IMG/VR virus record: IMGVR_UViG_3300025162_000046
Span: 1-64,000 of that record
DNA length: 64,000 nt
Strand: one strand, 5' to 3'
Source of the DNA: a virus
The notes under the pieces were generated by a model. The model did not search any database and was not told the origin of the DNA. It was given only the letters and a program-made list of their open reading frames with translations. A program made the position numbers and the translations under genes. Positions 1 through 61,987 of the stretch are shown piece by piece (the stretch's first letter is position 1; each line of letters begins with the position of its first letter).

Positions 1-1879
1 CAATGGTCTGTCCTAACAAAGCGTGAGGGCCTGCGATCAATTTGAAATTCGCTCCGCCGCTGAATTGAAGTGCGGAAGTCGGCACGGCGGTAGTCCAGAA
101 AATCCTATCGATGTTATTCATACGAGCAAAGTCGCGCTCTCGGTTTGCCATTCCTTCCTTGGTGTGAACCTTCTCAAAAAAAGGAGAGGATTCAAGCATA
201 TTGAGCATTGGCTCAAATAATAACTCGGAAGATTTCTTTTGTGAAGTTGCGCAGAAGGCTTGGGCATATATGGTGGCGGGGGAATGACCGAAGAAACGCC
301 ACGGCGAGCGCATCATAGATAGATGAGTTCCTATGTATAGATTGACGAGAACCGCCAAAAAAGAATTATGGGTGACAATATAATCATCCGTCAAATATAA
401 GCATTCCGGGTGGTCTATCATTATACAGGTCGCTTCTGCATCTTCAACTTGCTCTATTCTTGACAAGTATAAAACTTGCGTTTTTCTTTTTGTTCTTGGG
501 CGATTAAAATGATAATCAACTATGTCTTGCTTTCTCTTTAAAGAAAAAATAGGAAATTTGTTGGAAGGAAATGATATAAAAATAAAATAGCAAGGAAAGT
601 TTATTTTACAGTGGGGTCTAATAGTATCATCTCTGCTCCAAGAGGCAAGCCCCCCCAGCCCCCTCACTAATGTGAGCATATTATCCCTTAATTTTTCACT
701 AGTAGTGTTAAATACCGCTAGTCCCGATCGTTTAACCGCTGTGCCATCCGTATCCATCAGCCCCTGAAGCAATGCAATACGATTCCAAATAGAATCGTAA
801 AGATATTCCTCAGGGATAAATTTATTATTACTTCGTGTCTCTCTCAAACCTAATCGCCCTAATTCTTTTTTATAAGGGTTGCCTTTAGTATGATGATATG
901 TGAATATAGTCTGATAGTCGCATGAAACCGTTTTTGAAATTCGTGCCTGCACATCACTCGATAATTCTTTTTCAACTCGAGCATGAATTTCTTTATCATC
1001 TCCTACAAGTGTGACGGCTGATCCAAAATATCCGTCACCCAATAGAGCCCCTAAAGTATACGGGGATATAATATGGGGGTTTGCCTTGTGAAGAACAGGC
1101 TCCGTTAAAGGTATAAACCAACGATCCTTTGGGTTCTTTTCAATGGACTCTAAAATCCCTTGAGTGGTGATTGTTTTCCAATTAGGAGTTTGGAATTCTT
1201 TTTTCATATATTTTTTTTGTTGTTTATTCCACTCGATAGAGCACTTAGATTTTGCTGCTTTCCACAAATGTTCTCGACCTATATAAGTTTCTCTCCCATC
1301 AGAAAAGGTAGCTCTGAAGATTTCCTTTCTACCCTGCGGTGAGACTTTTATCACATTTGCAAATGATCCATCAGGCGTGCATACTTTTTCACCTACCTGA
1401 ATATCTCCTATGGGGATATCTCCGTGTTCGTAAGTCTTTATATTACAATCGTTCCTCTCCATTTTCCCAAAGCCGATGAAAGAATAAAGAACAGCGGTTC
1501 GATACGGCGCAGTAGGATTCATGAAATCAATAAAGGCTTGCTTGACCTGTGGCCAAATGGTTTGCGCGACAGGACCTAAATAACGCTCAGTAAGAAATTC
1601 CTCTGGTGTAGGGGGCCTATCACGATAATTGAGTCGCCAGCTATTGGATAGAAGATCCGCTTTTTGACTTTCATCAAGATCTTGATTGGTGAGAATAAAT
1701 TCAAGTGCTGTTTTGAGTTGCTGGACATTAAGACCCGTGAACTCAGGTCTGGCGAGAGCAGCCGGATCTCCTGAGAGAACATCTTTGAAAATAAATTGTA
1801 AATTGTTAAGTAGCTCAGGATCAAATGTGGATAGATCGACCCCCTTTGCTTCTTCAAGAAAAGGGTTATTTGTGGACAT
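1..1879 (-). CDS. terL: Terminase large subunit, intein-containing, 3' end outside window
   Basis: Manually translated open frame from ATG 1879 to the window edge (absent from the ORF track because there is no stop). MSTNNPFLEE...RPPTPEEFLTERYLG...RTAVLYSFIGFGK/[intein]/SFLAVLVNLY gives a Walker A GxGKS and an N-terminal motif typical of large-phage terminases. Confidence 0.75.
   Translation of the reverse strand, partial: MSTNNPFLEEAKGVDLSTFDPELLNNLQFIFKDVLSGDPAALARPEFTGLNVQQLKTALEFILTNQDLDESQKADLLSNSWRLNYRDRPPTPEEFLTERYLGPVAQTIWPQVKQAFIDFMNPTAPYRTAVLYSFIGFGKMERNDCNIKTYEHGDIPIGDIQVGEKVCTPDGSFANVIKVSPQGRKEIFRATFSDGRETYIGREHLWKAAKSKCSIEWNKQQKKYMKKEFQTPNWKTITTQGILESIEKNPKDRWFIPLTEPVLHKANPHIISPYTLGALLGDGYFGSAVTLVGDDKEIHARVEKELSSDVQARISKTVSCDYQTIFTYHHTKGNPYKKELGRLGLRETRSNNKFIPEEYLYDSIWNRIALLQGLMDTDGTAVKRSGLAVFNTTSEKLRDNMLTLVRGLGGLASWSRDDTIRPHCKINFPCYFIFISFPSNKFPIFSLKRKQDIVDYHFNRPRTKRKTQVLYLSRIEQVEDAEATCIMIDHPECLYLTDDYIVTHNSFLAVLVNLYIGTHLSMMRSPWRFFGHSPATIYAQAFCATSQKKSSELLFEPMLNMLESSPFFEKVHTKEGMANRERDFARMNNIDRIFWTTAVPTSALQFSGGANFKLIAGPHALLGQTI
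365..1462 (-). mobile_element. Contiguous 366-aa intein with LAGLIDADG homing endonuclease in the terminase P-loop; class 3-like (Met1, WCT motif)
   Basis: Starts MERNDCNIKTYEHGDIPIGDIQVGEKVCTPDG. Block B is GREHLW. LAGLIDADG motifs are PYTLGALLGDG and LLQGLMDTDG. Ends ATCIMIDHPECLYLTDDYIVTHN/S. Confidence 0.92.
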
Positions 1880-1901
1880 CTTAGTCTTTTCCTTTGGCGC
1901 C

Positions 1902-1936
1902 ACTAATTATCTTAGTAAGCACACTCCTTATTTAGT
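1902..1936. promoter_or_regulatory. Oppositely oriented late-type promoter motifs: ACTAATTA (+, 1902-1909) and ACTAAATA (-, 1929-1936)
   Basis: Matches a motif found upstream of about 20 genes in this window; lies between terL and the 2134 gene. Confidence 0.6.
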
Positions 1937-2133
1937 GTGCCGGAATTCGAGGAAACTCGGATGAATGCGAAAAATGTTGCAAATGCATGCAAAATGCTCG
2001 GGCTTACGTGTGAGCCAACCGTCCTCTTAACATATGTGAGGCAAAAACCAAGCGCGCCGGCAATAAAGCGCAGCACATCTTAAACCACCATACGTGGCAC
2101 GAACAACGTTGGTGACCCTGAGGAGGGTCAATT

Positions 2134-3642
2134 ATGAACAGAGCGGAATTCCGCCGAATGGCAGAGATCAAAGCTAAGATCACTGTAGCAAAAAGACGCC
2201 GTATGCGTGAGGCTGGCGTCCCCGTAGCAGTAGGCCCGGACAAGGGTGAGAATGCTTACATCAAGTCACCTCTTTCTGGTGAAGAGCTGAAAGTTGTAGA
2301 AGCATATCGCAAGTGGAAACGCGCACGCGTTCAAGAAGGCGAAGCTGCTGCTCCCGCTGATGATGGCGCCGAGGCTCCGGCAACGAATGTGACTGCCGAA
2401 TCTCGCAACATGCGTATTCTTCGTCTTAAAAGGAAGATTGAGCGTCGTCGCCGAGTCGAAGGCCTCAAGCGTCAGCTCGCAGAGAAGCGCAATGCCGAAA
2501 AACCGGATGCTCTTCGTTCACAAGCCCTTGCACTCAAAGAAAGGATTCAAAAGGTCCGCAAAGCTCTTAGAACTTTGAGTCTTCGTGAAGGCGCTCCCGG
2601 AGCCGCCCCAATGGCCCCCCCTCCTGACGCTTCTTCGCCCCCAATGGGCGCAGCCGCTCCTGGTGCCGATGGCATGCCCGGAGCAATTCCAAATCTCCCG
2701 CCAGAAATTACTGCGGAGATTCAGAATATCGCAACAGCAGCGCAGTCACTTGCACAGATGGCTGGCGTAGCACCAGAAGCACCACAACCCGGCGCGGATC
2801 TTGGCGCAGGTATTCCTCCTGAAGGTGCCGCTCCTGGTAGTTCCGGAATGCTTCCTGAGAAGGCTCAGCGCATCGCTCGTATCAAGGCTCTTCTTGAGAA
2901 GAAGAAAGCCGAAAAGGGTGATGACAAAAAGAAAGAGAAAAAGGCTGAGAAGGAAGATGAGAAAGACGAGAAGGGCAAGAAGAAATTCCCCTTCAGCAAG
3001 AAGAAGGAATCGTGGGAAGATAATGAGGCTAATAGAAAAAACACTAAACTCATGGCTAATAAACTTATGCCTCTTACTCAAATGATTCCAGACGAATTCT
3101 ACGCAGATGAAGAAGAAGATGAGGACGGGAAGCTGATGGACAGCGTGCGCAATCGTGCCACTGCTCGTCGTGAGGCCCTCCAGAAAATCCGCGCTCGCGC
3201 GATGAACGAAAGATCCTATGAAGCCGAAGAGGCTTCTGATGGTGATGTCAAGGGTTTTGTAAAGAACGCGCTTGACCTTGGTCAGCGTGGCTATGAACTT
3301 AACCAAGACCGCGTGATTCAGCAAGCTGGTGTCAAGCATGACGGAGCATCTCCTTCCATGCCTGGCAGAAAGGAAGCAACCTCAAGTATTAGCCCTGCCC
3401 GCACCTGGCCCGCTAAGGACCTCAAGTATGGTGGGAAGGTTCCTGATAGTTTCGCACGAACCCCCGATTATAACCCCGTTCGTAAGTCTGGTGGGCAACC
3501 GCGTATGCCCGGACAGGGGGATAAGGGGGCTGTGACTAAGGAATCTGTCGAGCAAGATTGGTCAGAAAAAAATATTGATCATTTCCTTGAGAGGAAGGAG
3601 CTCAACTTTCGCGATTTACTTAAAAGTGGTCGCCTCGGCTGA
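2134..3642 (+). CDS. Probable prohead core/scaffold-like protein
   Basis: Charged coiled-coil segments with Pro/Ala/Gly linkers, many (L/M/V)xE-(A/G/S) sites (MREA, VQEG, LREG, TKES), strong GGAGG RBS. Confidence 0.5.
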   Translation: MNRAEFRRMAEIKAKITVAKRRRMREAGVPVAVGPDKGENAYIKSPLSGEELKVVEAYRKWKRARVQEGEAAAPADDGAEAPATNVTAESRNMRILRLKRKIERRRRVEGLKRQLAEKRNAEKPDALRSQALALKERIQKVRKALRTLSLREGAPGAAPMAPPPDASSPPMGAAAPGADGMPGAIPNLPPEITAEIQNIATAAQSLAQMAGVAPEAPQPGADLGAGIPPEGAAPGSSGMLPEKAQRIARIKALLEKKKAEKGDDKKKEKKAEKEDEKDEKGKKKFPFSKKKESWEDNEANRKNTKLMANKLMPLTQMIPDEFYADEEEDEDGKLMDSVRNRATARREALQKIRARAMNERSYEAEEASDGDVKGFVKNALDLGQRGYELNQDRVIQQAGVKHDGASPSMPGRKEATSSISPARTWPAKDLKYGGKVPDSFARTPDYNPVRKSGGQPRMPGQGDKGAVTKESVEQDWSEKNIDHFLERKELNFRDLLKSGRLG

Positions 3643-3680
3643 TAAGAACTTAATTTTTAGGGCCTTCTAACCGGAGGTTG

Positions 3681-3716
3681 AAGCCTCCACTAATTATATT
3701 ATTGGTGGAGGCTTTT
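3681..3716 (+). promoter_or_regulatory. RBS-sequestering hairpin containing the ACTAATTA motif
   Basis: AAGCCTCCAC-TAAT-tatatt-ATTG-GTGGAGGCTT inverted repeat; GGAGG is in the 3' arm; ATG at 3719. Confidence 0.8.
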
Positions 3717-3718
3717 TT

Positions 3719-3883
3719 ATGCCCTGTTATGTTTATGTCTATCTTGACCCTCGAAAACCGGGGATATTTGGATACGGGGAATACAAGTTTGACCATGAAC
3801 CTTTTTATGTAGGGTATAGCTCGCGTCAATTCCGTATGAGTGAACACCTTCGCGAGCTTTTAGCTAGTGGCCGTTTAGGTTAA
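3719..3883 (+). pseudogene. Truncated GIY-YIG-like homing endonuclease fused in frame to a second copy of the upstream gene's C-terminus (54 aa)
   Basis: MPCYVYVYLDPRKPGIFGYGEYKFDHEPFYVGYSSRQFRMSEHL-RELLASGRLG*. The first part is nearly identical to the 3938 ORF N-terminus; the last 10 aa match RDLLKSGRLG* of 2134..3642. Confidence 0.85.
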
Positions 3884-3905
3884 ACTTTAGCAACTTCCCA
3901 GAGAT

Positions 3906-3935
3906 AAAACTCCCACTAATTATAGTGGGAGTTTT
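3906..3935 (+). promoter_or_regulatory. RBS-sequestering hairpin containing the ACTAATTA motif
   Basis: AAAACTCCCACTA-atta-TAGTGGGAGTTTT, a perfect 13-bp stem; ATG at 3938. Confidence 0.85.
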
Positions 3936-3937
3936 TT

Positions 3938-4720
3938 ATGCCATACGTGTATGTTTACCTGGACCCTCGTAAACCGGGAATTTTCGAATACGGGGATTAT
4001 AAATTCGATTATGAACCTTTCTATGTAGGCTACGGGAGTCAGCAAACAAGAATGAGAGCCCATTTAAGAGACGCTAAAAAACATAAGGGCTCTGAGCACC
4101 CTAAATTCGCGAAAATTCATAAGATTTGGGCGGAAGGACTGGATCCTATTCTTATTCAGTATCAAAAAAATCTAAGTAGAGAGAAAGCCTGCGAATTAGA
4201 GCATAACATGGTAATCACGATAGGTCGGCAGGACTTGAAAAAAGGGCCACTAACCAATCTTACTGATGCGGGAGAGACCAATTTGAATCGGTCGTATAAA
4301 CCGAGACCTCAGCCAACGAGAACACGAGAAAAAATTCGGGACACTCTAAAGCAAAAATACATTGATCACCCAGAATTGCGTGAAAAACCTTTCTCGCAAG
4401 ACACCCGAAAAAAAATTAGCGCGGGGCTTATAAAAGCCTACGCAGCTGGAAAAAAAATGCCGGTAACTGGTGGCTGGAAGTTATCTGAAGAGGTTATAAA
4501 AGAAATGTCAGAAAGAAGTAAATTACAAAAGCATCCAACAGGGATTAATGCCGCAAATTGGTCAGGATGGGCTTACGACCCTCAAAAAAACATATCTTAC
4601 GCTACCGCAAAGTTGGCCGCAAGATACGAGCAAGTGGCTAATGGGACTATTCTTTGGAGAATTCAAAAAGGTAAATGGAAATACCTTCAAGAACCTCAGG
4701 GAACTCAGGTCTTTGAGTAA
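3938..4720 (+). CDS. Free-standing GIY-YIG-like homing endonuclease
   Basis: YVYVYLDPRK...EPFYVG...R...E...GPLTNLTDAG catalytic module plus basic NUMOD3-like segments (SQDTRKKISAGL). Confidence 0.85.
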   Translation: MPYVYVYLDPRKPGIFEYGDYKFDYEPFYVGYGSQQTRMRAHLRDAKKHKGSEHPKFAKIHKIWAEGLDPILIQYQKNLSREKACELEHNMVITIGRQDLKKGPLTNLTDAGETNLNRSYKPRPQPTRTREKIRDTLKQKYIDHPELREKPFSQDTRKKISAGLIKAYAAGKKMPVTGGWKLSEEVIKEMSERSKLQKHPTGINAANWSGWAYDPQKNISYATAKLAARYEQVANGTILWRIQKGKWKYLQEPQGTQVFE

Positions 4721-4757
4721 ATCTTACTAATTAAAAGACTTCCTAAAGGAGAATAAT

Positions 4758-6875
4758 ATGGCAGAGCAAGGCCTACCAAAAGTAAAGAAATCAGAAGGAG
4801 ACGAAACTGCCGATAATTGGCTCAAGGGCGAAGCTACTTGGCCGGTTTCTGAAATCGATCCTTCTGTTATAGATCCGGATGGTTTGTTTTTGCCAAAGGA
4901 CCCGAGAAGCATCGCGGAAGAACAACAAGATCGCGAACGCGGGTCTAAAGATTTATACCAGCAGAAGTTCAAACCGCCGTTCGGAGCAATCCAAAACGAC
5001 TGGGAGTCTAACATAGATCCCCGTGCTGATGAAAAAGATGCTAAAGGCCCCGTCTCTAAGCATGCAGCGGCTAATCGGGATCACGCAAAAGATGGCGAGC
5101 GCAATCAAGGGGCCAAGGCTGATATCACCACGGATTATATGAATAAGGAACCAAAAGAGAAGCTTTTTTCTGATGAAAAGAAACTCACGGAGATGTCTAT
5201 AGAAGAGCTTGAAAGACTCCTTGAGGCAGAGGATATTCCAGTTGAGGCGGATCTTCTCACAAATCTACCTCCTCTACCTGAAGCCCCAATTTCTAACTCG
5301 GATTACAATTCTGAAGAAGATGATGAAGAGACAGAAGCGCTTGATACTTTTGAGCATGCCAGCCATGACCCTGTGCCAAAAGAGGGCCCAATCGAGACCG
5401 TCCTCCATACCGGGGCTTATCACGATCAACTCCAAGAAGCCGGTGGCAAGGGCGCTTTTGGCCAATTTTTTCAAGAGAATCCAAATGCTTTCCATGAGGA
5501 TCCTAAGAACGCTTTTCATCGCTATAAAAAATGGGCCGACAAAAAAGGAATTGAACAAGGTTGGTGGCAAACATTCCAGCGCGCGCATGCTAAGGGAGCT
5601 GGTGGTTCTGCTACTGCTACAAAAGCGCCTCGACCTGGGAAAGCTCCTCCTCCTGATGCGGCCCCGCCAGCACCAAGGCCTTCTATCCAAAGCGCAGACT
5701 TAGATAGCGAGTTTGGTGATATGCTGGGGCCCCTCGCCAAGGCAACAGAAGAGCAACTTTCATCTGAACTTACGGTGGATGAGAAGTATTCTCAGCTTCT
5801 TTCTAAAGTATACGATTGGGCGACAACTCCCATGGAGCCTTTTGAGAAAGATCCATCTAAGAAAACCTCGGGTAGCAAACGCCATATAATGATCTGTGGT
5901 TCAGCAGGGGTGGGCAAAACATTTAGTGTGAAAGAAGCGGTTCTTCGAGCGGTAAATGAGGGGATCAAATTCAAAACTCAATATGTTCGCGGAACGATTG
6001 GCAAATCCATTTCTAATGTCATGGCATTCCTTTATCGATTCCGCCAAGGCTATCTCATCATATTCGATGACTGCGATGACTTTCTTGATTCAGATCTTGG
6101 CAATGTCATGAAAGGAGTATTTGAGCTTGATGCCCCGACAACAAACACCGGCTCTGTCGGCGTTCGTAAGATGGCAGCGAAGAATATGCTCGATCTCGAA
6201 GATCAGCCTCTTGAAGAAAGCGAAGCTATTCGTAAATTCCTTCGAGGCGAATTCCTGAACGAGGCCGCGGATGAAGACATGCCAATGGACGAGGTGGTGG
6301 ATGAGGCTGATGATGAAGAAGAATTTGAACGCGATGGAATGGATGATACTGGTAATGAAGATAAAGCCGAAGAACTTCTCCCCGCTCGTATCAATTTCCA
6401 ATCTCGCATCCTCTTCATTTCCAACAAAAAAAGAACTCAAATTGACGCTGCTGTTAGATCTCGTCTCAGCGTAATAGAGTTGTATCTCTCGGCACAAGAG
6501 ATTATTGGCCGCATCAGAGAGATTTTCGCGCAGCTTCTCAAAAATGAAGCTACAGTTCCCAAGGCTCGCCTCGAGTGGGCAAAAACTAACGCTCTTCGTT
6601 GGTTAGAACTTACAGTCAAGGCCAATGGGCAACCAATCGAATTCCTTGGGGGCCGTTCGCTTCAACTTCCTTTTGAGCCCGATGCTACGATTATTGAGTT
6701 CCGAACTTATATTGATCTCGTGAGTGGCTGGCTTTCTCAATCGAAAAAATATGAGCGTGAGCATAAAGGTATATCTCTTATGACACAGCCGAAACTTCCG
6801 ATGGATTTCCTTCGCGGGTTCTTGATGGGCGAGTTAGTTCCTATTCTTAAGGATGCAACGAAAGGTCGTCGATAA
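4758..6875 (+). CDS. AAA+/P-loop ATPase with long acidic N-terminal extension
   Basis: Walker A GSAGVGKT, Walker B LIIFDDCD, sensor ILFISN, AVRSR arginine finger. LTEM/LQEA/LEES/LNEA sites suggest head processing. Confidence 0.8.
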   Translation: MAEQGLPKVKKSEGDETADNWLKGEATWPVSEIDPSVIDPDGLFLPKDPRSIAEEQQDRERGSKDLYQQKFKPPFGAIQNDWESNIDPRADEKDAKGPVSKHAAANRDHAKDGERNQGAKADITTDYMNKEPKEKLFSDEKKLTEMSIEELERLLEAEDIPVEADLLTNLPPLPEAPISNSDYNSEEDDEETEALDTFEHASHDPVPKEGPIETVLHTGAYHDQLQEAGGKGAFGQFFQENPNAFHEDPKNAFHRYKKWADKKGIEQGWWQTFQRAHAKGAGGSATATKAPRPGKAPPPDAAPPAPRPSIQSADLDSEFGDMLGPLAKATEEQLSSELTVDEKYSQLLSKVYDWATTPMEPFEKDPSKKTSGSKRHIMICGSAGVGKTFSVKEAVLRAVNEGIKFKTQYVRGTIGKSISNVMAFLYRFRQGYLIIFDDCDDFLDSDLGNVMKGVFELDAPTTNTGSVGVRKMAAKNMLDLEDQPLEESEAIRKFLRGEFLNEAADEDMPMDEVVDEADDEEEFERDGMDDTGNEDKAEELLPARINFQSRILFISNKKRTQIDAAVRSRLSVIELYLSAQEIIGRIREIFAQLLKNEATVPKARLEWAKTNALRWLELTVKANGQPIEFLGGRSLQLPFEPDATIIEFRTYIDLVSGWLSQSKKYEREHKGISLMTQPKLPMDFLRGFLMGELVPILKDATKGRR

Positions 6876-22237: not shown

Positions 22238-22277
22238 AAAGACTACTAACTAGGTTCCTAGGAGGAACAGCACAGAT

Positions 22278-23399
22278 ATGATTTTCCACCAAAATATTTC
22301 CCGCGATTTATTCTCCCAAAAGTATATGATAAACGGGGAAACCACCCCGGATCAGGTATTCCACGATATAGCAGTAGAAATCTCTCGACCCGAAAAACCC
22401 GGAATTCGCCTTAGAGTTCAAAATGAGTTTGAGTCGATTATGACCGAGGGTTACTTTATTCCTGGCGGCCGAATTTTGGCTAACGCACGCACTTACGGGC
22501 ATCTAAAATCGCGAAACTATAATAATTGCTTTACTATTAACATTGAAGATAACATGGAAGGCATCTATATGTCCGTGTATGAAGATGCCATGATCAGCCG
22601 TATGGGTGGTGGAGTGGGGTTCAATGTATCTAAATTGAGACCCAAGGGAAGCAAAACTACCAATGGCGGCGAAGCATCAGGCCCCGTCTCTTTCCTTCGT
22701 GTGTTCGACGCATCCGCCAAAACCATAAGCAGCGGTGGGGCACGGCGCTCAGCGCATATTGCTCTTCTGGATATTTCTCACCCGGACATCGAAGAGTTCA
22801 TTACCGTCAAGCAAGGGGACAAAGATAAAAAACTTTCTCAATTCAACATCTCTGTAATCATCACCGATGCTTTTATGAAGGCGGTGAGTGAAGATGCTGA
22901 TTGGGATTTGGTATTCGAAGGAAAAGTTTACAGAACTCTAAAAGCCCGAAAATTATACGAGACACTCGCTAAGAATGCCTATGAGCACAACGACCCGGGC
23001 GTTTTCTTTGTTGACACCGTTCAACGAGATAATAATGCTTGGTGGGCATTTGTTATGGATGCGTGTAATCCCTGCGTCGCAGGAGCGACTCAGGTAGAAT
23101 TCAGAATCGGAGACAGTCCCCCTCACAGTATCGCCATACAGGACCTAGCAGAAATCTACAAGGGGCTAAAATCTGGTCAGTACATCTACGTAAAGTCCTA
23201 CGATGAGAAGACCCAACAAGTTGTTTGGAAGATGTTGCAAGGAGCAAACCTCACTAAGAAGGACACTGAGCTGCTTCAGATCACCGATACAGAAACTGGG
23301 AAGGTTATTCGCTGCACCCCGGATCATAAGATTCTTACGAAGCGAGGTTGGGTCGAGGCTCAGGCTCTCGAGGCTGATGACCAGATTATCCAGGCGTAA
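22278..23399 (+). CDS. nrdJ: Class II ribonucleotide reductase, N-terminal fragment fused to split intein N-half
   Basis: PGGRIL, NCF, GGGVG, SGPVSF, GGARR, HPDIEEFI, NISV, then ...ACNP/CVAGAT intein start. Confidence 0.93.
   Translation: MIFHQNISRDLFSQKYMINGETTPDQVFHDIAVEISRPEKPGIRLRVQNEFESIMTEGYFIPGGRILANARTYGHLKSRNYNNCFTINIEDNMEGIYMSVYEDAMISRMGGGVGFNVSKLRPKGSKTTNGGEASGPVSFLRVFDASAKTISSGGARRSAHIALLDISHPDIEEFITVKQGDKDKKLSQFNISVIITDAFMKAVSEDADWDLVFEGKVYRTLKARKLYETLAKNAYEHNDPGVFFVDTVQRDNNAWWAFVMDACNPCVAGATQVEFRIGDSPPHSIAIQDLAEIYKGLKSGQYIYVKSYDEKTQQVVWKMLQGANLTKKDTELLQITDTETGKVIRCTPDHKILTKRGWVEAQALEADDQIIQA
23073..23396 (+). mobile_element. Split intein N-fragment (108 aa) of NrdJ
   Basis: CVAGATQV... 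block A; IRCTPDHKILTKRGWVEAQALEADD block B, followed by a stop. Confidence 0.92.
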
Positions 23400-23656
23400 G
23401 CAACATCAACTCACAGAGATCAAGGGCTGCATCGAGAGAGGTATCCTCGGATCTAGCTTTCAGGAGATATCAATCGAAGCTCCAAAAGATGTGTGAGACT
23501 ATTATGAACCGGCAAGCAATAGGCTTTCCAGAATTAATAAGAGATATAGATAGGATAGTGAAAGAAGAAAAGGAGAGAGGCTTGATACCAAGAACGTTTG
23601 GATTGAGTAGACAGTCCATAGATAAATATAGAGTACGGGAGGTATTCGAGTGTTAA
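23400..23656 (+). pseudogene. Probable remnant of a deleted gene (homing endonuclease?) between the intein halves
   Basis: Start-less open frame ...MCETIMNRQAIGFPELIRDIDRIVKEEKERGLIPRTFGLSRQSIDKYRVREVFEC* that overlaps the IntC start, in the position occupied by the endonuclease in the SbcC locus. Confidence 0.4.
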
Positions 23657-23751
23657 CCATTGAGAAGGTTCGTAATGAAGATGTGTACGATCTATCCGTC
23701 GAAGGAACTCATAATTTCTTCGGCAATGGAATGGTTGTACATAACTGTGGT
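23650..23751 (+). CDS. nrdJ: NrdJ C-terminal part, exon 1: split intein C-fragment (32 aa) plus Cys-Gly
   Basis: GGGAGG RBS, GTG 23650; MLTIEKVRNEDVYDLSVEGTHNFFGNGMVVHN/CG. Too short for the ORF track. Confidence 0.92.
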
Positions 23752-23986
23752 GGAATTTAGCGCCTCAGTATAATCACAGGGTGAATTGCTGGAAAGCTAA
23801 GCGGAAGTAAGCTAATCAGCAGCCAAGCGCGGTAGGGATACCGCGAAGGTTCAGAGACTAACAGCCGAGTCCAGATCGGACAGTAATGCTGACACGAGCG
23901 CCCTGCTCACGAAAGTGATGAAGATATAGTCCGATACTCCAGTGAAAATTGGAGAGCTATGATAAAGAGCATAGCAATAACAGATG
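23752..23986 (+). ncRNA. Group I self-splicing intron (235 nt, no ORF)
   Basis: 5' exon ends in U and the intron ends in G. P AATTGCTGGAAA (23784), Q AATCAGCAG (23814), R GTTCAGAGACTA (23849), S AAGATATAGTCC (23921). P3 CAGGG/CCCTG, P7 GACTA/TAGTC. P10 GGAATTT pairs with 3' exon AAATTCC. Removal restores CG-EIPMP in frame. Confidence 0.93.
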
Positions 23987-25453
23987 GAAATTCCCATGCC
24001 CGCATATAGCCTCTGTTGCCTCGGTGCACTCAATCTAACAAAATTCATAATAGATCCCTTCACACCTGTTGCGCGTTTTCATTTTCAAAAAATGGCAGAG
24101 ATTGTGAAGACCGCCGTCAGGCTATTAGATAATACGCTTGACGCAACACAATACCCTCTTGAACGCATAGAGACTTTCTCAAAACAATGGCGCCGCATTG
24201 GTCTTGGTTTTACTGGCCTAGGTGATGCGCTTGCTATGCTTGGAATGAAGTATGGAGATGAGAGCAGTGTCGCGTTTTGCGAGATCTTTGGTCGTTCTCT
24301 TCGTGATGCTTCCTATCGAGCATCGGTTGAACTGGCGAAAGAGAAAGGTATGGCTCCTGGGCTTAAATCCGGCTTCTTCAAAAACAAACCTGATCCGCGC
24401 CTTACCTTAGGCGACTTCATTACCAAGATGCCGTTCGATCTTAGGAGAGATATTGGCAAATATGGCCTTCGCAACATAGGACTCAATACCGCAGCACCAA
24501 CCGGCACCATCTCTTTAACCGTTGGAAACAATTGCTCATCGGGGATTGAGCCGATCTTTGAGTATCAATTTACCCGTAATATTCGCACCGGAACCGGAGA
24601 TGAGACGAAGCCCGAGATAGTGCGTGACTACGCTTGTCTTATTTGGGAACAAAACCATCCCGGCGAGCCGCTTCCCACTTACTTTGTTACTGCGTTGGAG
24701 TTGGAGCCTCGCAAGGCGATTGATATCCAGGCGGCAATTCAAAAATATATAGATCATAGCATCTCAAAAACTTTTAATTTCGATGGTAAAAAATTGGGGT
24801 TTGAGGAATATAAAGATCTATTTACTTATGGTTATAAATCGGGCTTGAAGGGATATACTAGTTTTAATATTTCTGGTAGTATGAAAGGTGTTCTTGAATC
24901 AAGAGCACAGCCTAGTGAAGATAAACTAGATTCCTTTGTTCTTAGATCTAATGCTCCTAAACGCCCGAATGAACTGCCGTGCGACATACACTATGTCCAT
25001 GCTAACGGGCAGGACTTTATTGTTCTCGCTGGCCTACTCAACGGATCGATTTATGAGATTTTCGTTGATGAGCAGAATGGCCATGATTTCGGTTCTCTCA
25101 AATCCGGCAAGATCATCAAAAAAGGAAAAGGAGAGTATTCTCTCATAGACCCCGAAGGAAAAATGTTGGTTGAAGGGCTATCAAAAAACTTCAATGGAAC
25201 TTGGGGGTCTCTTGCGAGGATGATTTCTATGTCGTTGCGACACGGAGTTCCCCTCCAATTTATCATTGACCAGTTACAGCGCTCAAAAGAATTCTTGGGG
25301 TTTGAGAAGGCGGTATCTCGCGTGCTCAAACACTATATGAAAGAAGGCGAGGTATATGAATCGAAGGATAAATGTTCAAAATGTGGTGGTAAGCTAATAT
25401 TCCAAGAAGGCTGTTATGTTTGTAAATCGTGCGGCAATTCGGCCTGTACTTAG
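23987..25453 (+). CDS. nrdJ: NrdJ C-terminal part, exon 2
   Basis: EIPMPAYSLCCLGALNL, RRIGLGFTGLGD, APTGTIS, SSGIEP, C-terminal TSCPD-like region and CSKC...CYVCKSC zinc ribbon. Confidence 0.93.
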   Translation, partial: EIPMPAYSLCCLGALNLTKFIIDPFTPVARFHFQKMAEIVKTAVRLLDNTLDATQYPLERIETFSKQWRRIGLGFTGLGDALAMLGMKYGDESSVAFCEIFGRSLRDASYRASVELAKEKGMAPGLKSGFFKNKPDPRLTLGDFITKMPFDLRRDIGKYGLRNIGLNTAAPTGTISLTVGNNCSSGIEPIFEYQFTRNIRTGTGDETKPEIVRDYACLIWEQNHPGEPLPTYFVTALELEPRKAIDIQAAIQKYIDHSISKTFNFDGKKLGFEEYKDLFTYGYKSGLKGYTSFNISGSMKGVLESRAQPSEDKLDSFVLRSNAPKRPNELPCDIHYVHANGQDFIVLAGLLNGSIYEIFVDEQNGHDFGSLKSGKIIKKGKGEYSLIDPEGKMLVEGLSKNFNGTWGSLARMISMSLRHGVPLQFIIDQLQRSKEFLGFEKAVSRVLKHYMKEGEVYESKDKCSKCGGKLIFQEGCYVCKSCGNSACT

Positions 25454-25590
25454 ACCCCCGCACTCACCTAACTGCCCGAGAGATTTGGGATTATGATGAG
25501 AGAAGAATCAAAGAATTAGAAGTCTTAGGGTATCAAGTTCAAATTGTTTGGGAATGTGAGAGACCCAAACCCAGCCGAACGACTAATTAG
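25454..25590 (+). pseudogene. C-terminal remnant of a Vsr-like homing endonuclease
   Basis: Start-less frame LTAREIWDYDERRIKELEVLGYQVQIVWECE matches the Vsr-type D..R...L...GY.V..VWE motif. Confidence 0.7.
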
Positions 25591-58392: not shown

Positions 58393-58818
58393 ATGATTAC
58401 TCTAAACAGTTTGACTATCAAAAACTTTATCTGCGTTGAGTCCGCCGATTTCGATTTTATCAACAACTATATCACAGTTTTCTTTGGGGCGAATGGTAGC
58501 GGCAAATGCATCGAAGGCTCTACAAGAATCAAAACCAAACAATTCGGGGAACTCCCAATTAAAGAACTTTTTAAGAAATTGGAAGTTTCACCTTCTGTTA
58601 AAATGGCTCTTCCCAAAGAAGGACTTGAAGTTTGGACTGATGAGGGGTGGAAATCCATTGAGGCATTCTGGATCACCCCGCCCGAGCCTTTGTGGGAACT
58701 GGAATTAGATGATGGTATAGTTCTGCGAGCCAGTGCAGACCATCGTGTAATGACGCAGCGCGGCTGGGTGAAGCTAAAGGATCTCCAGGAATCAGATGAG
58801 ATTCTGCGGGAAGAATGA
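58393..58818 (+). CDS. Rad50/SbcC/gp46-like ATPase N-terminal fragment fused to split intein N-half (58507-58815)
   Basis: LTIKNF...FFGANGSGK/CIEGSTRIKT...LRASADHRVMTQRGWVKLKDLQESD. Confidence 0.93.
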   Translation: MITLNSLTIKNFICVESADFDFINNYITVFFGANGSGKCIEGSTRIKTKQFGELPIKELFKKLEVSPSVKMALPKEGLEVWTDEGWKSIEAFWITPPEPLWELELDDGIVLRASADHRVMTQRGWVKLKDLQESDEILREE

Positions 58819-58863: not shown

Positions 58864-59970
58864 ATGGATTTACAAACTCTTGCAAAAAATCTTTATGGTG
58901 AGGATTATTCTTTATGGCAACTCGGTTCGTTGAGGCGACAACTACAAAAAAAGAAAATAACCGAAGTTGATATTACTTGGAGAGAAGAAGAAAATGGTTT
59001 CGGCGCTTGGGATATGATTCATGGTATCCCTTTATCTTGTAATACTTATTGGCATAGCTATGCTTGCACTTCTTGTGGTAAAAAAATTATTGATATAGAT
59101 CGAAATCATAAACGCCGGGCTAATCCTACCCTTTGCGGGCATTGCAGCAAATCAAAAACTTTAACAGAAGTGAATCGAAATTCCAATAAAGTAAAAAACG
59201 CAGAGATTTTTGCTGACCCTCTTCTAGGCTCTATTCGGAAAGAAAAACTAAGAGAAAATAGGATTCGAATAAACCAAACTGTGATGGCAGATTTTATTCG
59301 AAACTTGTCGCCGGAGAGAAAAGAACAAATAGCCATTCAGAAGAAACAAACTTGGGGGGCTCGTCCAGTAGAGGAAAAAAAGGAAATCAATAAAACTCGC
59401 AATGGCTATCTTTATAAAAGTGAAAAGGAGATACAAGAACGAGTACAAAGAGGGGTAGAGACTAAGAAAAAAAACTTAGCTAAACTGTCCTCGGAAGAGA
59501 TCCGACAAAAAACCTTAGAGAGGGTGGCAAAAATGAAAGCTACCATTCGATCTAAACCTAAAGACCTGAGGTTTAATCACCCTGAGCGTAGATATGTAAA
59601 GGGGAAGCAAGGTGAGGTAGGGGGTGTTTATTTTCAATCATCTTACGAAGAAGCCGTATTACAGTTTTGTTGCATGAAAATGTATAAGATACAAAGAGGG
59701 CCGGCACTTGAATACTATAATCCAATAGGAAAAAGTATTTCTCTTTATTTTGTGGACTTTTTGATAAACGATACTCTTTTAGTAGAGATAAAAAGTAATT
59801 ATACTTGGGATCAAAATATAGAAATCAATAAGGCGAAAGAAAGATGCGCTCAGTCGTATGCACAAGAACAAGGGTTGACCTATCTGACGCTTATATTATC
59901 CAAGGAGGATATCAAGGATGTCAACAAGATTCTCGAAAATACGTTCAATAAAGAATTTAGAGAGAACTGA
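58864..59970 (+). CDS. Homing endonuclease, PD-(D/E)XK/TnsA-like C-terminal nuclease with N-terminal zinc finger
   Basis: CTSC...CGHC; FQSSYE...YFVDFLINDTLLVEIKS; located between split intein halves; ACTAATTA at 58840. Confidence 0.85.
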   Translation: MDLQTLAKNLYGEDYSLWQLGSLRRQLQKKKITEVDITWREEENGFGAWDMIHGIPLSCNTYWHSYACTSCGKKIIDIDRNHKRRANPTLCGHCSKSKTLTEVNRNSNKVKNAEIFADPLLGSIRKEKLRENRIRINQTVMADFIRNLSPERKEQIAIQKKQTWGARPVEEKKEINKTRNGYLYKSEKEIQERVQRGVETKKKNLAKLSSEEIRQKTLERVAKMKATIRSKPKDLRFNHPERRYVKGKQGEVGGVYFQSSYEEAVLQFCCMKMYKIQRGPALEYYNPIGKSISLYFVDFLINDTLLVEIKSNYTWDQNIEINKAKERCAQSYAQEQGLTYLTLILSKEDIKDVNKILENTFNKEFREN

Positions 59971-61987
59971 AAATTGCTATGATATTCAGGTCGCAGATAT
60001 TCAGCGGTACTTCTCTAATGGAATTGTAAGCCATAATTCTAGTATTTTTGAGGCCATCGCCTTATGCTGGACAGAGCGCAGGAGAGGCGACTCCTATAAG
60101 GATTTCATCAAGCACGGGACTGATTCTGCAGAGATTCACCTTGTTGCCAGTATTCACGGCGAACCCATTCAATTCGATGTGGAGATTCGTGATAAGAAAG
60201 GGGCGACTCCTTTTCAACGAACTATCACTTATAAAAAAGAGAAGTATGTAAATTCAGAGTGCACTACGCTTCTCACCTCCTTCGATATTGATTATCTCCA
60301 ACACATTATGTTCTCTATGCAAGGTGAGAATAACATTACTGATCTCAAACCCTCCGAAAGAACTAAACTTCTCAAGCGTATTTTCAATTTCGAGTTTGAA
60401 TCTCAATTGAGCCAACTTGATAAATTGGTTGAACAAGAAGAACAGAACAGCCTCGTGCTCAAAACTCGCGTTGATGTTTTATCTCATATGAAATTTGAAT
60501 ATGAGCAAGCGGAGCAAACCCTTACTCTCGACAAGCGCAGCGAAATAGAAAATCGCATTACCGAGATCGATGAAATCATAAGAGTGCAAGAACAAAATCA
60601 ACTTCTTCAATCCGAAACTTCTCATCGACTCGAAAGTCTCCGCGCCCAAGGTCAAGCTGCGTCAGCACGCAAGCATTCTATCGAAAAAGATATCAGTGAC
60701 CTTAATAGTTCGTATACTCGACTACTCGGGGATAAGAATCGACATAGTCAAGCATTACTTACTCTCCCCGATTCCGTGAAACTCGAAGAAGAAATCAAAG
60801 AGAAAACCGCGGCAATTGAATCGTTCAAGATTCTCGTGGAGCAAAATCGTCTTCTTATTCAAGAGAAGGAAAACAATCTCGGATCTCGTCAAAGCCGTAT
60901 CCTTGAACTTAGGAATCACATCGTAGCACATAAGCAAGGCATTTGTCCTCAGTGTGGGCAAGACACTCATCCTGAAACCGTTCCTGAACTTGAGACCTCT
61001 TTGGAATCAGTTGAACAATTGTATGAGGAGCTCCTCTCACAAAAAATGATGCTTGAGACCGCTGAGAAAGGTGCCGAGAGAAACATCTCCACCTATCAGG
61101 CGGCAATACCTAATCTTAGAGAAAAAATCAAATCGTCTGCGGATATGAAAATCCAGTTTGAGAGCATTTTCAAAACCATCGAAGAAAGCACCCAGCAAAC
61201 AAACGGAACCATTGAAATTCGAAAATCCACTTTGTTGGAAGTCGAGAATCAGATCAAAGAACTCGAACAGCAAATTGAAGAGATCTCTCCTAAATTGGTT
61301 CGAATGATTCCTACCACATCTCTTCTCAGTGAGAAGAGTGGGTTAGCTAATCAGGTTCAGAGGCATCTTGCTGTCATCGCTCGCAACGAAGTAATTGAGC
61401 GTAAAAATATAGAGATGAAACAAAAAGAAGAAGGGAACAAACAACTACTGATAGACCTCAACCGGCAACAAAACGATTTGCTGCTATCGACGAATAATTA
61501 TAAAGACGCGAAGCGCATATTGGAAGTAGACCTACCCAATTATATCATTGTCAAAGCGTGCTCAAAACTTGAAAAACATATCAATCATTTTATCTCTGAG
61601 GTCAAGGAAGGGATGGTAGTTAGGCTATTCCAAGCGCGCTCGGGAGTTGAATTTTTCTATTCCCCAGTAGGAGAAGTAGCAAATTCTGAAGATTGGACCT
61701 CTACAAAAATGGCATCGGGATTTGAACGGGAATTGCTATCAGCCGCGTGGAGAGTAGCGTTAGCAAGGGCTTATAATCTACACGCGCTTATGCTTGATGA
61801 GGTGGATAGCGCGGCTAACACCTTCTCATCTGAAAAAATGTTTAGAGAGATCGCTAATCTCACCGGCTTTGAGCAGCTCTTCATAGTGAGTCACAAGCCT
61901 GAAGTAGTCGATATTTTATTACAGGAAAATGAGAGAGTGACCGCGTATTTCGTCCAAGATGGTATCTTTACTCGTCAAGAATACTAA
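59918..61987 (+). CDS. Split intein C-half (40 aa) fused to Rad50/SbcC/gp46-like C-terminal fragment
   Basis: MSTRFSKIRSIK...CYDIQV...YFSNGIVSHN/SSIFEAI; coiled coils, CPQC zinc hook, ASGFE signature, LMLDEVD Walker B, VSH. Confidence 0.93.
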   Translation: MSTRFSKIRSIKNLERTENCYDIQVADIQRYFSNGIVSHNSSIFEAIALCWTERRRGDSYKDFIKHGTDSAEIHLVASIHGEPIQFDVEIRDKKGATPFQRTITYKKEKYVNSECTTLLTSFDIDYLQHIMFSMQGENNITDLKPSERTKLLKRIFNFEFESQLSQLDKLVEQEEQNSLVLKTRVDVLSHMKFEYEQAEQTLTLDKRSEIENRITEIDEIIRVQEQNQLLQSETSHRLESLRAQGQAASARKHSIEKDISDLNSSYTRLLGDKNRHSQALLTLPDSVKLEEEIKEKTAAIESFKILVEQNRLLIQEKENNLGSRQSRILELRNHIVAHKQGICPQCGQDTHPETVPELETSLESVEQLYEELLSQKMMLETAEKGAERNISTYQAAIPNLREKIKSSADMKIQFESIFKTIEESTQQTNGTIEIRKSTLLEVENQIKELEQQIEEISPKLVRMIPTTSLLSEKSGLANQVQRHLAVIARNEVIERKNIEMKQKEEGNKQLLIDLNRQQNDLLLSTNNYKDAKRILEVDLPNYIIVKACSKLEKHINHFISEVKEGMVVRLFQARSGVEFFYSPVGEVANSEDWTSTKMASGFERELLSAAWRVALARAYNLHALMLDEVDSAANTFSSEKMFREIANLTGFEQLFIVSHKPEVVDILLQENERVTAYFVQDGIFTRQEY

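Follow-up and report, generated by a model that had tools for sequence, protein, structure and literature searches.

The stretch of DNA analyzed here (hereafter the window, 64,000 nt) is part of the 73.8-kb IMG/VR virus record IMGVR_UViG_3300025162_000046, which is estimated to be ~37% complete. At 22278-25453, it contained a phage gene for a class II (vitamin B12-type) ribonucleotide reductase (RNR), nrdJ, whose active-site codons are interrupted at two points that lie only 6 nt apart. The same DNA was found in metagenome runs from freshwater, lake water, and sediment, and the phage is an uncultured freshwater phage. The parts of the gene described in this paragraph are all located on the plus strand. 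The first open reading frame (ORF; 22278-23399) encodes the N-terminal portion of the enzyme, or N-extein (22278..23072, 265 aa, matching PF02867 at profile positions 2-213, and PF00317), which ends in ...WWAFVMDACNP and is contiguous with the N-terminal half of a split intein (IntN, 23073..23399; 108 aa at 23073-23396, followed by a TAA stop at 23397-99), the boundary falling between the proline at 23070-72 and the cysteine at 23073-75. The C-terminal half of the intein (IntC, 23650..23745) follows after a gap of 250 nt. It is encoded from a GTG start that is preceded, at a distance of 7 nt, by its own Shine-Dalgarno sequence (GGGAGG, 23637..23642), and its 32 residues end in ...GMVVHN. Both halves matched PF14890, IntC doing so over profile positions 131-155 with 38 bits. 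IntC leads directly into a two-codon segment, TGT GGT (Cys-Gly, 23746..23751), which forms the end of exon 1 and supplies the first two residues of the C-extein, and then into a group I intron of 235 nt (23752..23986) that contains no ORF and has G at 23986 as its last nucleotide. In the unspliced frame of IntC, TGT GGT is followed by GGA ATT and by an in-frame UAG at 23758-60. The rest of the C-extein is encoded by exon 2 (23987..25453, 488 aa starting with EIPMPAYSLCC, PF02867 profile positions 219-521) and terminates in a TSCPD domain (PF12637) and a cysteine-rich, zinc-ribbon-like tail. The original prediction had described this anatomy, namely an NPCGE loop that is cut twice, a first ORF ending in ACNP-IntN, a 32-aa IntC from GTG 23650 that carries only Cys-Gly before a 235-nt group I intron, and the resumption of EIPMP at 23987; ORFs, profiles, and the sequence placed all of these elements where they had been expected, with one small coordinate correction.

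Because the intron is 235 nt long (3n+1), its removal sets IntC-Cys-Gly in frame with GAA ATT CCC ATG CCC (EIPMP) at 23987. After both predicted splicing steps, the loop reads NPCGE, as it does in the nearest uninterrupted relative (L007; related loci are referred to by such numbers), which has about 70-79% amino-acid identity and reads ...MDRCNPCGEIPMPPYSLCC... at this position. The predicted product of the window equals the ...CNPCGEIPMP... of L007 at the junction, and NPCGEI was also present in more distant uninterrupted relatives. The cysteine of 23746..23751 is at once the +1 nucleophile of the intein and the catalytic cysteine of NPCGE. The redox-cysteine motifs NNCF and SLCC were present in the N-half and the C-half, respectively. 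The two halves matched adjoining stretches of the NrdJ_Z equivalog TIGR02504 (NCBIfam), the N-half at profile positions 17-282 (226.7 bits) and the C-half at positions 284-596 (225.7 bits); scored separately, each was below the curated cut-off of 399.95 bits, and their sum was 452 bits. The otherwise uninterrupted nrdJ of L007 showed one reading-frame change within its C-half, at about 4824-4905 (tblastn pieces overlap at 4857-4905), for which either an assembly error or a genuine frameshift could be responsible.

The assignment of the intron was checked with Infernal. The Rfam model RF00028 matched 23742-23954 over its full length (model positions 1-253) with 75.8 bits against a gathering score of 50 (E = 1.2e-18), and a search of the phage's own genome with RF00028 recovered the same intron. 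The first paired region, P1, is formed by ACUGUGGU (23744-51) and 23762-69, with a U23751·G23762 pair at the 5' splice site, and was kept in four sequences; P10 comprises 7 bp between GGAAUUU (23752-58) and AAAUUCC (23988-94). The folding z-score of the intron was -3.8. An IMG/VR contig with the same layout, L010, whose exteins are 73-78% identical to those of the window at the amino-acid level, contained an intron that was 86% identical to that of the window, although synonymous sites between the two are saturated. When the introns of the window, L010, and L089 were compared, ten pairs had both sides altered with pairing kept, and these fell in stems read as P3/P8, P6, P9, and others; with three sequences compared, the covariation lends modest support to the predicted structure. 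The hexanucleotide TGTGGT also precedes the intron in L010, L089, and L163. The glycine codon was GGT in all intron-bearing alleles, as against 13 of the 48 distinct uninterrupted alleles, and was GGC in the nearest intron-less alleles (L007 and L093). A GGT codon at this position supplies the U of the U·G pair in P1.

A more divergent intron was located at the same CG|E site in L163 (4968-5206, 239 nt, AT-rich) with the same guide sequence, GCCUCAGUAUAAUCA, and it was also found in L158 and L164. RF00028 missed the intron of L163 even at E ≤ 1, whereas a covariance model built here (R1) matched it with 161 bits. The original prediction had proposed a survey of relatives for this arrangement, and the survey revealed the same layout in three lineages (the window; L010/L089; L163), outside of which R1 identified no copy among about 130 loci. 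RF00028 found nothing in the records of 12 of 13 further relatives, the exception being that of L010, and nothing in 40 loci with a related IntN. A junction-pattern search retrieved only the contig of L010 in IMG/VR, plus three metagenome contigs. Because the L163 intron goes undetected with Rfam, other introns that are tiny or divergent may also have escaped detection, and standard scans may under-count small phage group I introns of this kind. The intron region of the window was identical in contigs of one independent freshwater study, and relatives of its IntC-intron and intron-exon 2 junctions with 88-93% identity were present in two further runs. None of the runs found to contain the locus was an RNA run, and no join of 23751 to 23987 was seen among the contigs of four runs (22900-24500), which, being contigs only, are uninformative on expression either way. 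The Phage GenBank collection contained no close relative; matches there were restricted to the intron core (50-180 nt) and came from crAss-like, Shigella, Proteus, Pseudomonas, Bacillus, and Enterococcus phages. In the sample surveyed, this intron family was always accompanied by the split intein, and the split intein was also seen without the intron.

The split intein harbored the residues of a class 1 split intein (Cys1, TxxH, terminal HN, and +1 Cys), which were invariant across an alignment of eight IntN sequences. IntN starts with CVAGAT, with Cys1 at 23073-75, and its block B reads TPDH. Its best solved relative was the naturally split NrdJ-1 intein (8UBS, E = 1.2e-10). IntC matched the NrdJ-1 chain of 8UBS with E = 1.7e-3, and other intein C-termini in PDB matched as well; a protein search with the 46-aa IntC ORF of L010 returned its own cluster only. 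Several further related N-halves were recovered, namely P0003, with an IntN of 80% identity, P0004, and P0006-P0010. The start signal of IntC was kept in L010, L089, and L090, where AGGAGG is followed by 6 nt and GTG. The record also contained a second split intein, with an IntN-like match to PF14890 at 58555-58812, an IntC-like match at 59834-60037, and space for a gene between them.

The gap between the two intein halves overlaps a 55-aa ORF on the plus strand (23489..23656) that is a C-terminal remnant of an endonuclease, with the nuclease domain gone. This ORF had no Pfam or PHROG match of its own, and was 53% identical (E = 3e-19) to residues 277-329 of a 338-aa ORF located between the intein halves in L010. 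A full free-standing gene was present at this place in both L010 (338 aa) and L163 (332 aa); the two products were 36% identical to each other and shared a PDF...E-(I/V)-K motif. Matches of these ORFs were limited to weak PHROG endonuclease hits and, in pairwise comparison, a weak one to a TnsA-like nuclease domain. The L010 ORF had no Pfam, NCBIfam, or PDB sequence match, and neither a GIY-YIG match nor a Vsr-like EDxHD signature was seen in this type of endonuclease. On the basis of motifs, the endonuclease of the relatives looks TnsA-like, of the PD-(D/E)xK type. The window, which retains only the 3' remnant, corresponds to the endonuclease-loss stage of the model of Dassa et al. (2009). 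A 53-aa ORF directly after nrdJ (25429-25590) was similar to the C-terminus of a small nuclease-like ORF that occupies the same position behind nrdJ in L004, and a further free-standing endonuclease gene may have left it as a remnant; the matches of the two ORFs to PF18741 (REase_MTES_1575) were weak and below the cut-off (E = 0.064 and 0.0017).

Comparison of the window with L010 indicated that all coding pieces of the locus are conserved at the protein level. The proportions of synonymous (pS) and nonsynonymous (pN) differences were 0.77 and 0.17 in the N-extein, 0.88 and 0.24 in IntN, 0.81 and 0.17 in IntC, and 0.80 and 0.21 in the C-extein. Synonymous sites are saturated while nonsynonymous differences stay low, and both intein halves and both exteins are thus under purifying selection. 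The ATG at 23984 in the window, which opens a frame just ahead of exon 2, corresponds to TTG in L010 and L089 and to CTG in L163; the C-half thus lacks a conserved start of its own.

The active-site loop is a hot spot of insertion. Most of 80 NrdJ loci were uninterrupted there, and several kinds of insertion were found among the relatives. Contiguous HNH-type inteins at NP|C were found in L008, L011, L013, and others, and L004/L008 had a pair of contiguous HNH-type inteins with a 4-residue extein, CGEI, between them. The split intein was accompanied by both the endonuclease gene and the intron in L010/L090/L091 and in L158/L163/L164, by the intron after loss of the endonuclease gene in the window and L089, and by neither in L093/L098. 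Among the lineages that share the layout of the window, L163 has a NrdJ C-extein that is only 26% identical to that of the window. L010 and L007 were collinear over 10 kb with about 87-90% nucleotide identity and differed by a single 1.74-kb indel that consists of IntN, the endonuclease gene, IntC, the CG codons, and the intron, and the first ~40 nt of exon 2 were too diverged for alignment. By this comparison, the two form a pair of occupied and empty sites, in which the direction can be either gain or loss. The cassettes of the window and L010 are as diverged as their exteins, so that a recent transfer between these two lineages is not indicated. Neither the gain or loss of intein, endonuclease gene, and intron as one block nor the endonuclease remnant between the halves had been part of the original prediction.

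Other arrangements at this site were observed among the relatives. In L004/L008, the ORF at 1631-5452 reads NP|intein|CGEI|intein|CMPAY, a protein-level analogue of the two-codon island of the window. L089 (minus strand) carried a contiguous LAGLIDADG-type intein (5388-3721, with a Ser start and ...SITGN end) between NP and Cys1 of the split IntN; with tandem inteins at one site, the +1 residue of the first is residue 1 of the next. The same tandem arrangement was found in another sample (P0004). The nrdJ of L089 (minus strand, 6232-264) was further interrupted by a break after ...ITDAFM in the N-half, by another intein start at FNPGG|C, and at DHSISK|C by a second split intein whose halves enclose a TnsA-like endonuclease gene (PF08722, 37.8 bits), giving a total of at least five insertions.

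The locus is probably a working phage class II nrdJ in which the active-site codons NP|CG|E have been colonized by two selfish elements 6 nt apart, so that the message of the C-half would need cis-splicing as RNA before its product undergoes trans-splicing as protein. The first element is an NrdJ-1-family split intein at NP|C, which makes this a fractured gene as Dassa et al. (2009) use the term, with a decayed endonuclease gene, and the second is the small ORF-less group I intron at CG|E. The whole locus would be carried on one transcript, from which the N-half-IntN protein would be made starting at ATG 22278. Self-removal of the intron would join IntC-Cys-Gly in frame to EIPMP..., and translation of the spliced mRNA from GTG 23650 would yield IntC-CGEIPMP... 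(522 aa). IntN and IntC would then associate and trans-splice, using as nucleophile the +1 Cys, which doubles as the catalytic cysteine, and the end product would be one continuous NrdJ chain in which the NPCGE loop is intact. A copy of the octamer ACTAAYTR, ACTAACTA, is located on the plus strand at 22245..22252, 26 nt upstream of the nrdJ start, and is a possible phage promoter for the whole nrdJ locus. The octamer occurred 28 times in the window, whereas shuffled sequence predicts 7.3 copies; most copies are on the plus strand just upstream of genes (sites include 22245, 25582, 27432, and 29004), and no copy was found at 22253-25581. A scan for sigma-70 promoters gave 8 sites as against 6.7 in shuffled sequence, that is, no excess, and no terminator-like site was found on the plus strand between the nrdJ halves.

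Selection on the pieces, compensatory change in the intron, the conserved start of IntC, the non-conserved ATG ahead of exon 2, and the bias toward GGT favor a functional gene for which both splicing reactions are needed over either a pseudogene or a C-half translated on its own. The dependence itself had been put forward in the original prediction, in that active NrdJ would need intron excision and then trans-splicing. An intact NPCGE loop does call for both, and the proposal agrees with the confirmed anatomy, the match to L007, the purifying selection, the compensatory changes, and the recurrence of the layout in three lineages. Several points weigh against this interpretation. Co-transcription, RNA splicing, and protein splicing are predictions, and purifying selection shows that the pieces are kept, not that the joined enzyme is active. 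The original prediction had also raised the case of an intact RNR gene elsewhere. Searches of the 73.8-kb record revealed no other RNR of any class (I, II, or III), in favor of the prediction; on the other hand, with a record that is ~37% complete, a further RNR may be present elsewhere in the phage or in its host.

The layout can be accounted for by conserved DNA that serves as a homing hot spot and by the joint inheritance, gain, and loss of intein, endonuclease gene, and intron, and with these no regulatory purpose is needed. A different explanation, put forward in the original prediction, is that the two reactions form a regulatory AND gate, in which the efficiency of intron splicing tunes RNR, and in which IntC-CGGI from unspliced RNA trans-splices onto the N-half and turns it irreversibly into a dead product. 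Such a gate is mechanistically possible, and the putative IntC-CGGI decoy is chemically plausible. All three lineages have an in-frame stop within 2-3 codons of the intron start (UAG in the window and L163, UAA or UAG in L010/L089), so that unspliced RNA would encode IntC and 3-4 further residues with the +1 Cys intact, and the layout has been retained over a long divergence. However, phage group I introns generally have early stops just inside the 5' splice site, which counts against reading these stops as parts of a switch. L093 and L098 carried the same-site split intein without the intron and most relatives were uninterrupted; the intron-free L093 and the uninterrupted alleles indicate that the intron is dispensable for the enzyme. 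Furthermore, an evolved control device is a poorer fit than selfish mobility to presence or absence by one indel in close relatives. The gate is considered unlikely, and the locus gives the impression of selfish elements piled up at a single hot spot rather than of a proven regulatory switch. A more far-reaching version combines both ideas: the split intein, the TnsA-like endonuclease gene, and the ORF-less intron would constitute one composite mobile element that inserts as a whole, by homing, into NPCGE-coding DNA in widely different nrdJ genes and that, once resident, ties enzyme output to intron splicing efficiency through an IntC-CGGI decoy that irreversibly caps the N-half. This proposal is regarded as doubtful.

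It could also be supposed that the locus is a decaying pseudogene, a graveyard of mobile elements without active RNR, with nucleotides supplied by the host or by another phage gene. The endonuclease gene has already decayed, L089 has at least five insertions in the same gene, and the record is incomplete, all of which would be consistent with decay. However, all three coding pieces are open, pN/pS was about 0.2-0.3 in the exteins and in both intein halves, compensatory change maintains the intron structure, and the catalytic motifs, the start signals of IntC, and the splice-site context are intact, which makes decay very unlikely. An even less credible explanation, to which almost no weight is given, is a gene in pieces that works without splicing, with a C-half translated from ATG 23984 that assembles non-covalently with the N-half, like NrdA of Aeromonas phage Aeh1. 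This ATG does open a frame (MEIPMP...), and the split, non-spliced NrdA of Aeh1 that is described as working provides a precedent (PMC2677866, PMC3045599). However, the MEIPMP product would be without the Cys-Gly of NPCGE and hence without the catalytic cysteine, no Shine-Dalgarno sequence is located ahead of 23984, relatives have TTG (L010 and L089) or CTG (L163) in place of the ATG, and intact intein halves under selection would be left unexplained. Independent translation of the C-half from ATG 23984 was rejected for lack of a Shine-Dalgarno sequence, of a conserved start, and of Cys-Gly.

Each part of the nrdJ locus is well known, and no new kind of element is involved. Fractured genes with split inteins have been described for NrdJ-1/2, NrdA-1..7, gp41-1..8, and IMPDH, in which the split-intein halves flank a free-standing homing endonuclease gene, and the commonest intein site in RNR, as given in the same account, lies immediately ahead of the thiyl-radical cysteine, on its N-terminal side (Dassa et al., 2009; PMC2677866). 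The window resembles these loci as they are presented there: both halves share a locus and a strand, the first ORF terminates with IntN, and a separate start serves IntC. The endonuclease gene is present between the halves in L010 and L163 and has been lost in the window, as in gp41-7 (step III of that model). The intein of the window is homologous to the NrdJ inteins of Dassa et al. (NrdJ-1, PDB 8UBS). Its NP|C site is the commonest RNR site of PMC2677866, whereas the NrdJ inteins in that account are inserted one residue further on. Term searches of PMC2677866 returned nothing that places an intron at a fractured locus, whereas the window has a group I intron 6 nt past the intein site. No account of a split intein followed within a few bases by a group I intron turned up in term searches and targeted reading of published full texts.

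Group I introns in phage RNR genes are represented by those of T4 nrdB and nrdD, Twort nrdE, and SPβ bnrdE/F in the survey of PMC3653736. As in the cases outlined there, a small intron of the self-splicing type is located in a highly conserved catalytic segment of the window with an in-frame stop just inside, and its core resembles introns of crAss-like and other phages. In contrast to the RNR introns treated in that survey, the intron of the window is ORF-less, is located in the C-half gene of an already fractured RNR, and has a 5' exon of ~100 nt that is almost entirely intein-coding. An intron and an intein occur together in one RNR gene in SPβ bnrdE, Brochothrix phage A9 nrdE, and Lactococcus phage 949 nrdD (PMC3653736, PMC8270828), so that one gene requires both RNA and protein splicing, as predicted for the window. 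The inteins of these three genes are described in those two papers as contiguous (cis-splicing), with no 2-codon spacing reported there, whereas that of the window is split. In collaborative homing, ORF-less introns are associated with free-standing endonucleases (Zeng, Bonocora and Shub, 2009, as cited in PMC2814812). The loci examined here are similar, in that an ORF-less intron travels with a neighboring endonuclease gene whose product presumably cuts the empty site; unlike in collaborative homing as summarized there, the endonuclease gene is inside a split intein, so that three elements would share one nuclease.

What is unusual about the nrdJ locus is that two self-removing elements, one RNA-acting and one protein-acting, meet at a 6-nt island that holds the catalytic cysteine of an essential-type enzyme, where the codons TGT GGT are exon end, extein start, and catalytic centre at once. 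If the three parts move as a block, they would represent a natural case of cooperation among intron, intein, and nuclease, and would add an extra stage to the fractured-gene model. The locus also provides natural split inteins that are related to NrdJ-1 but diverged from it and that use a +1 Cys, as well as a natural setting in which to ask whether protein trans-splicing can be gated by RNA splicing.

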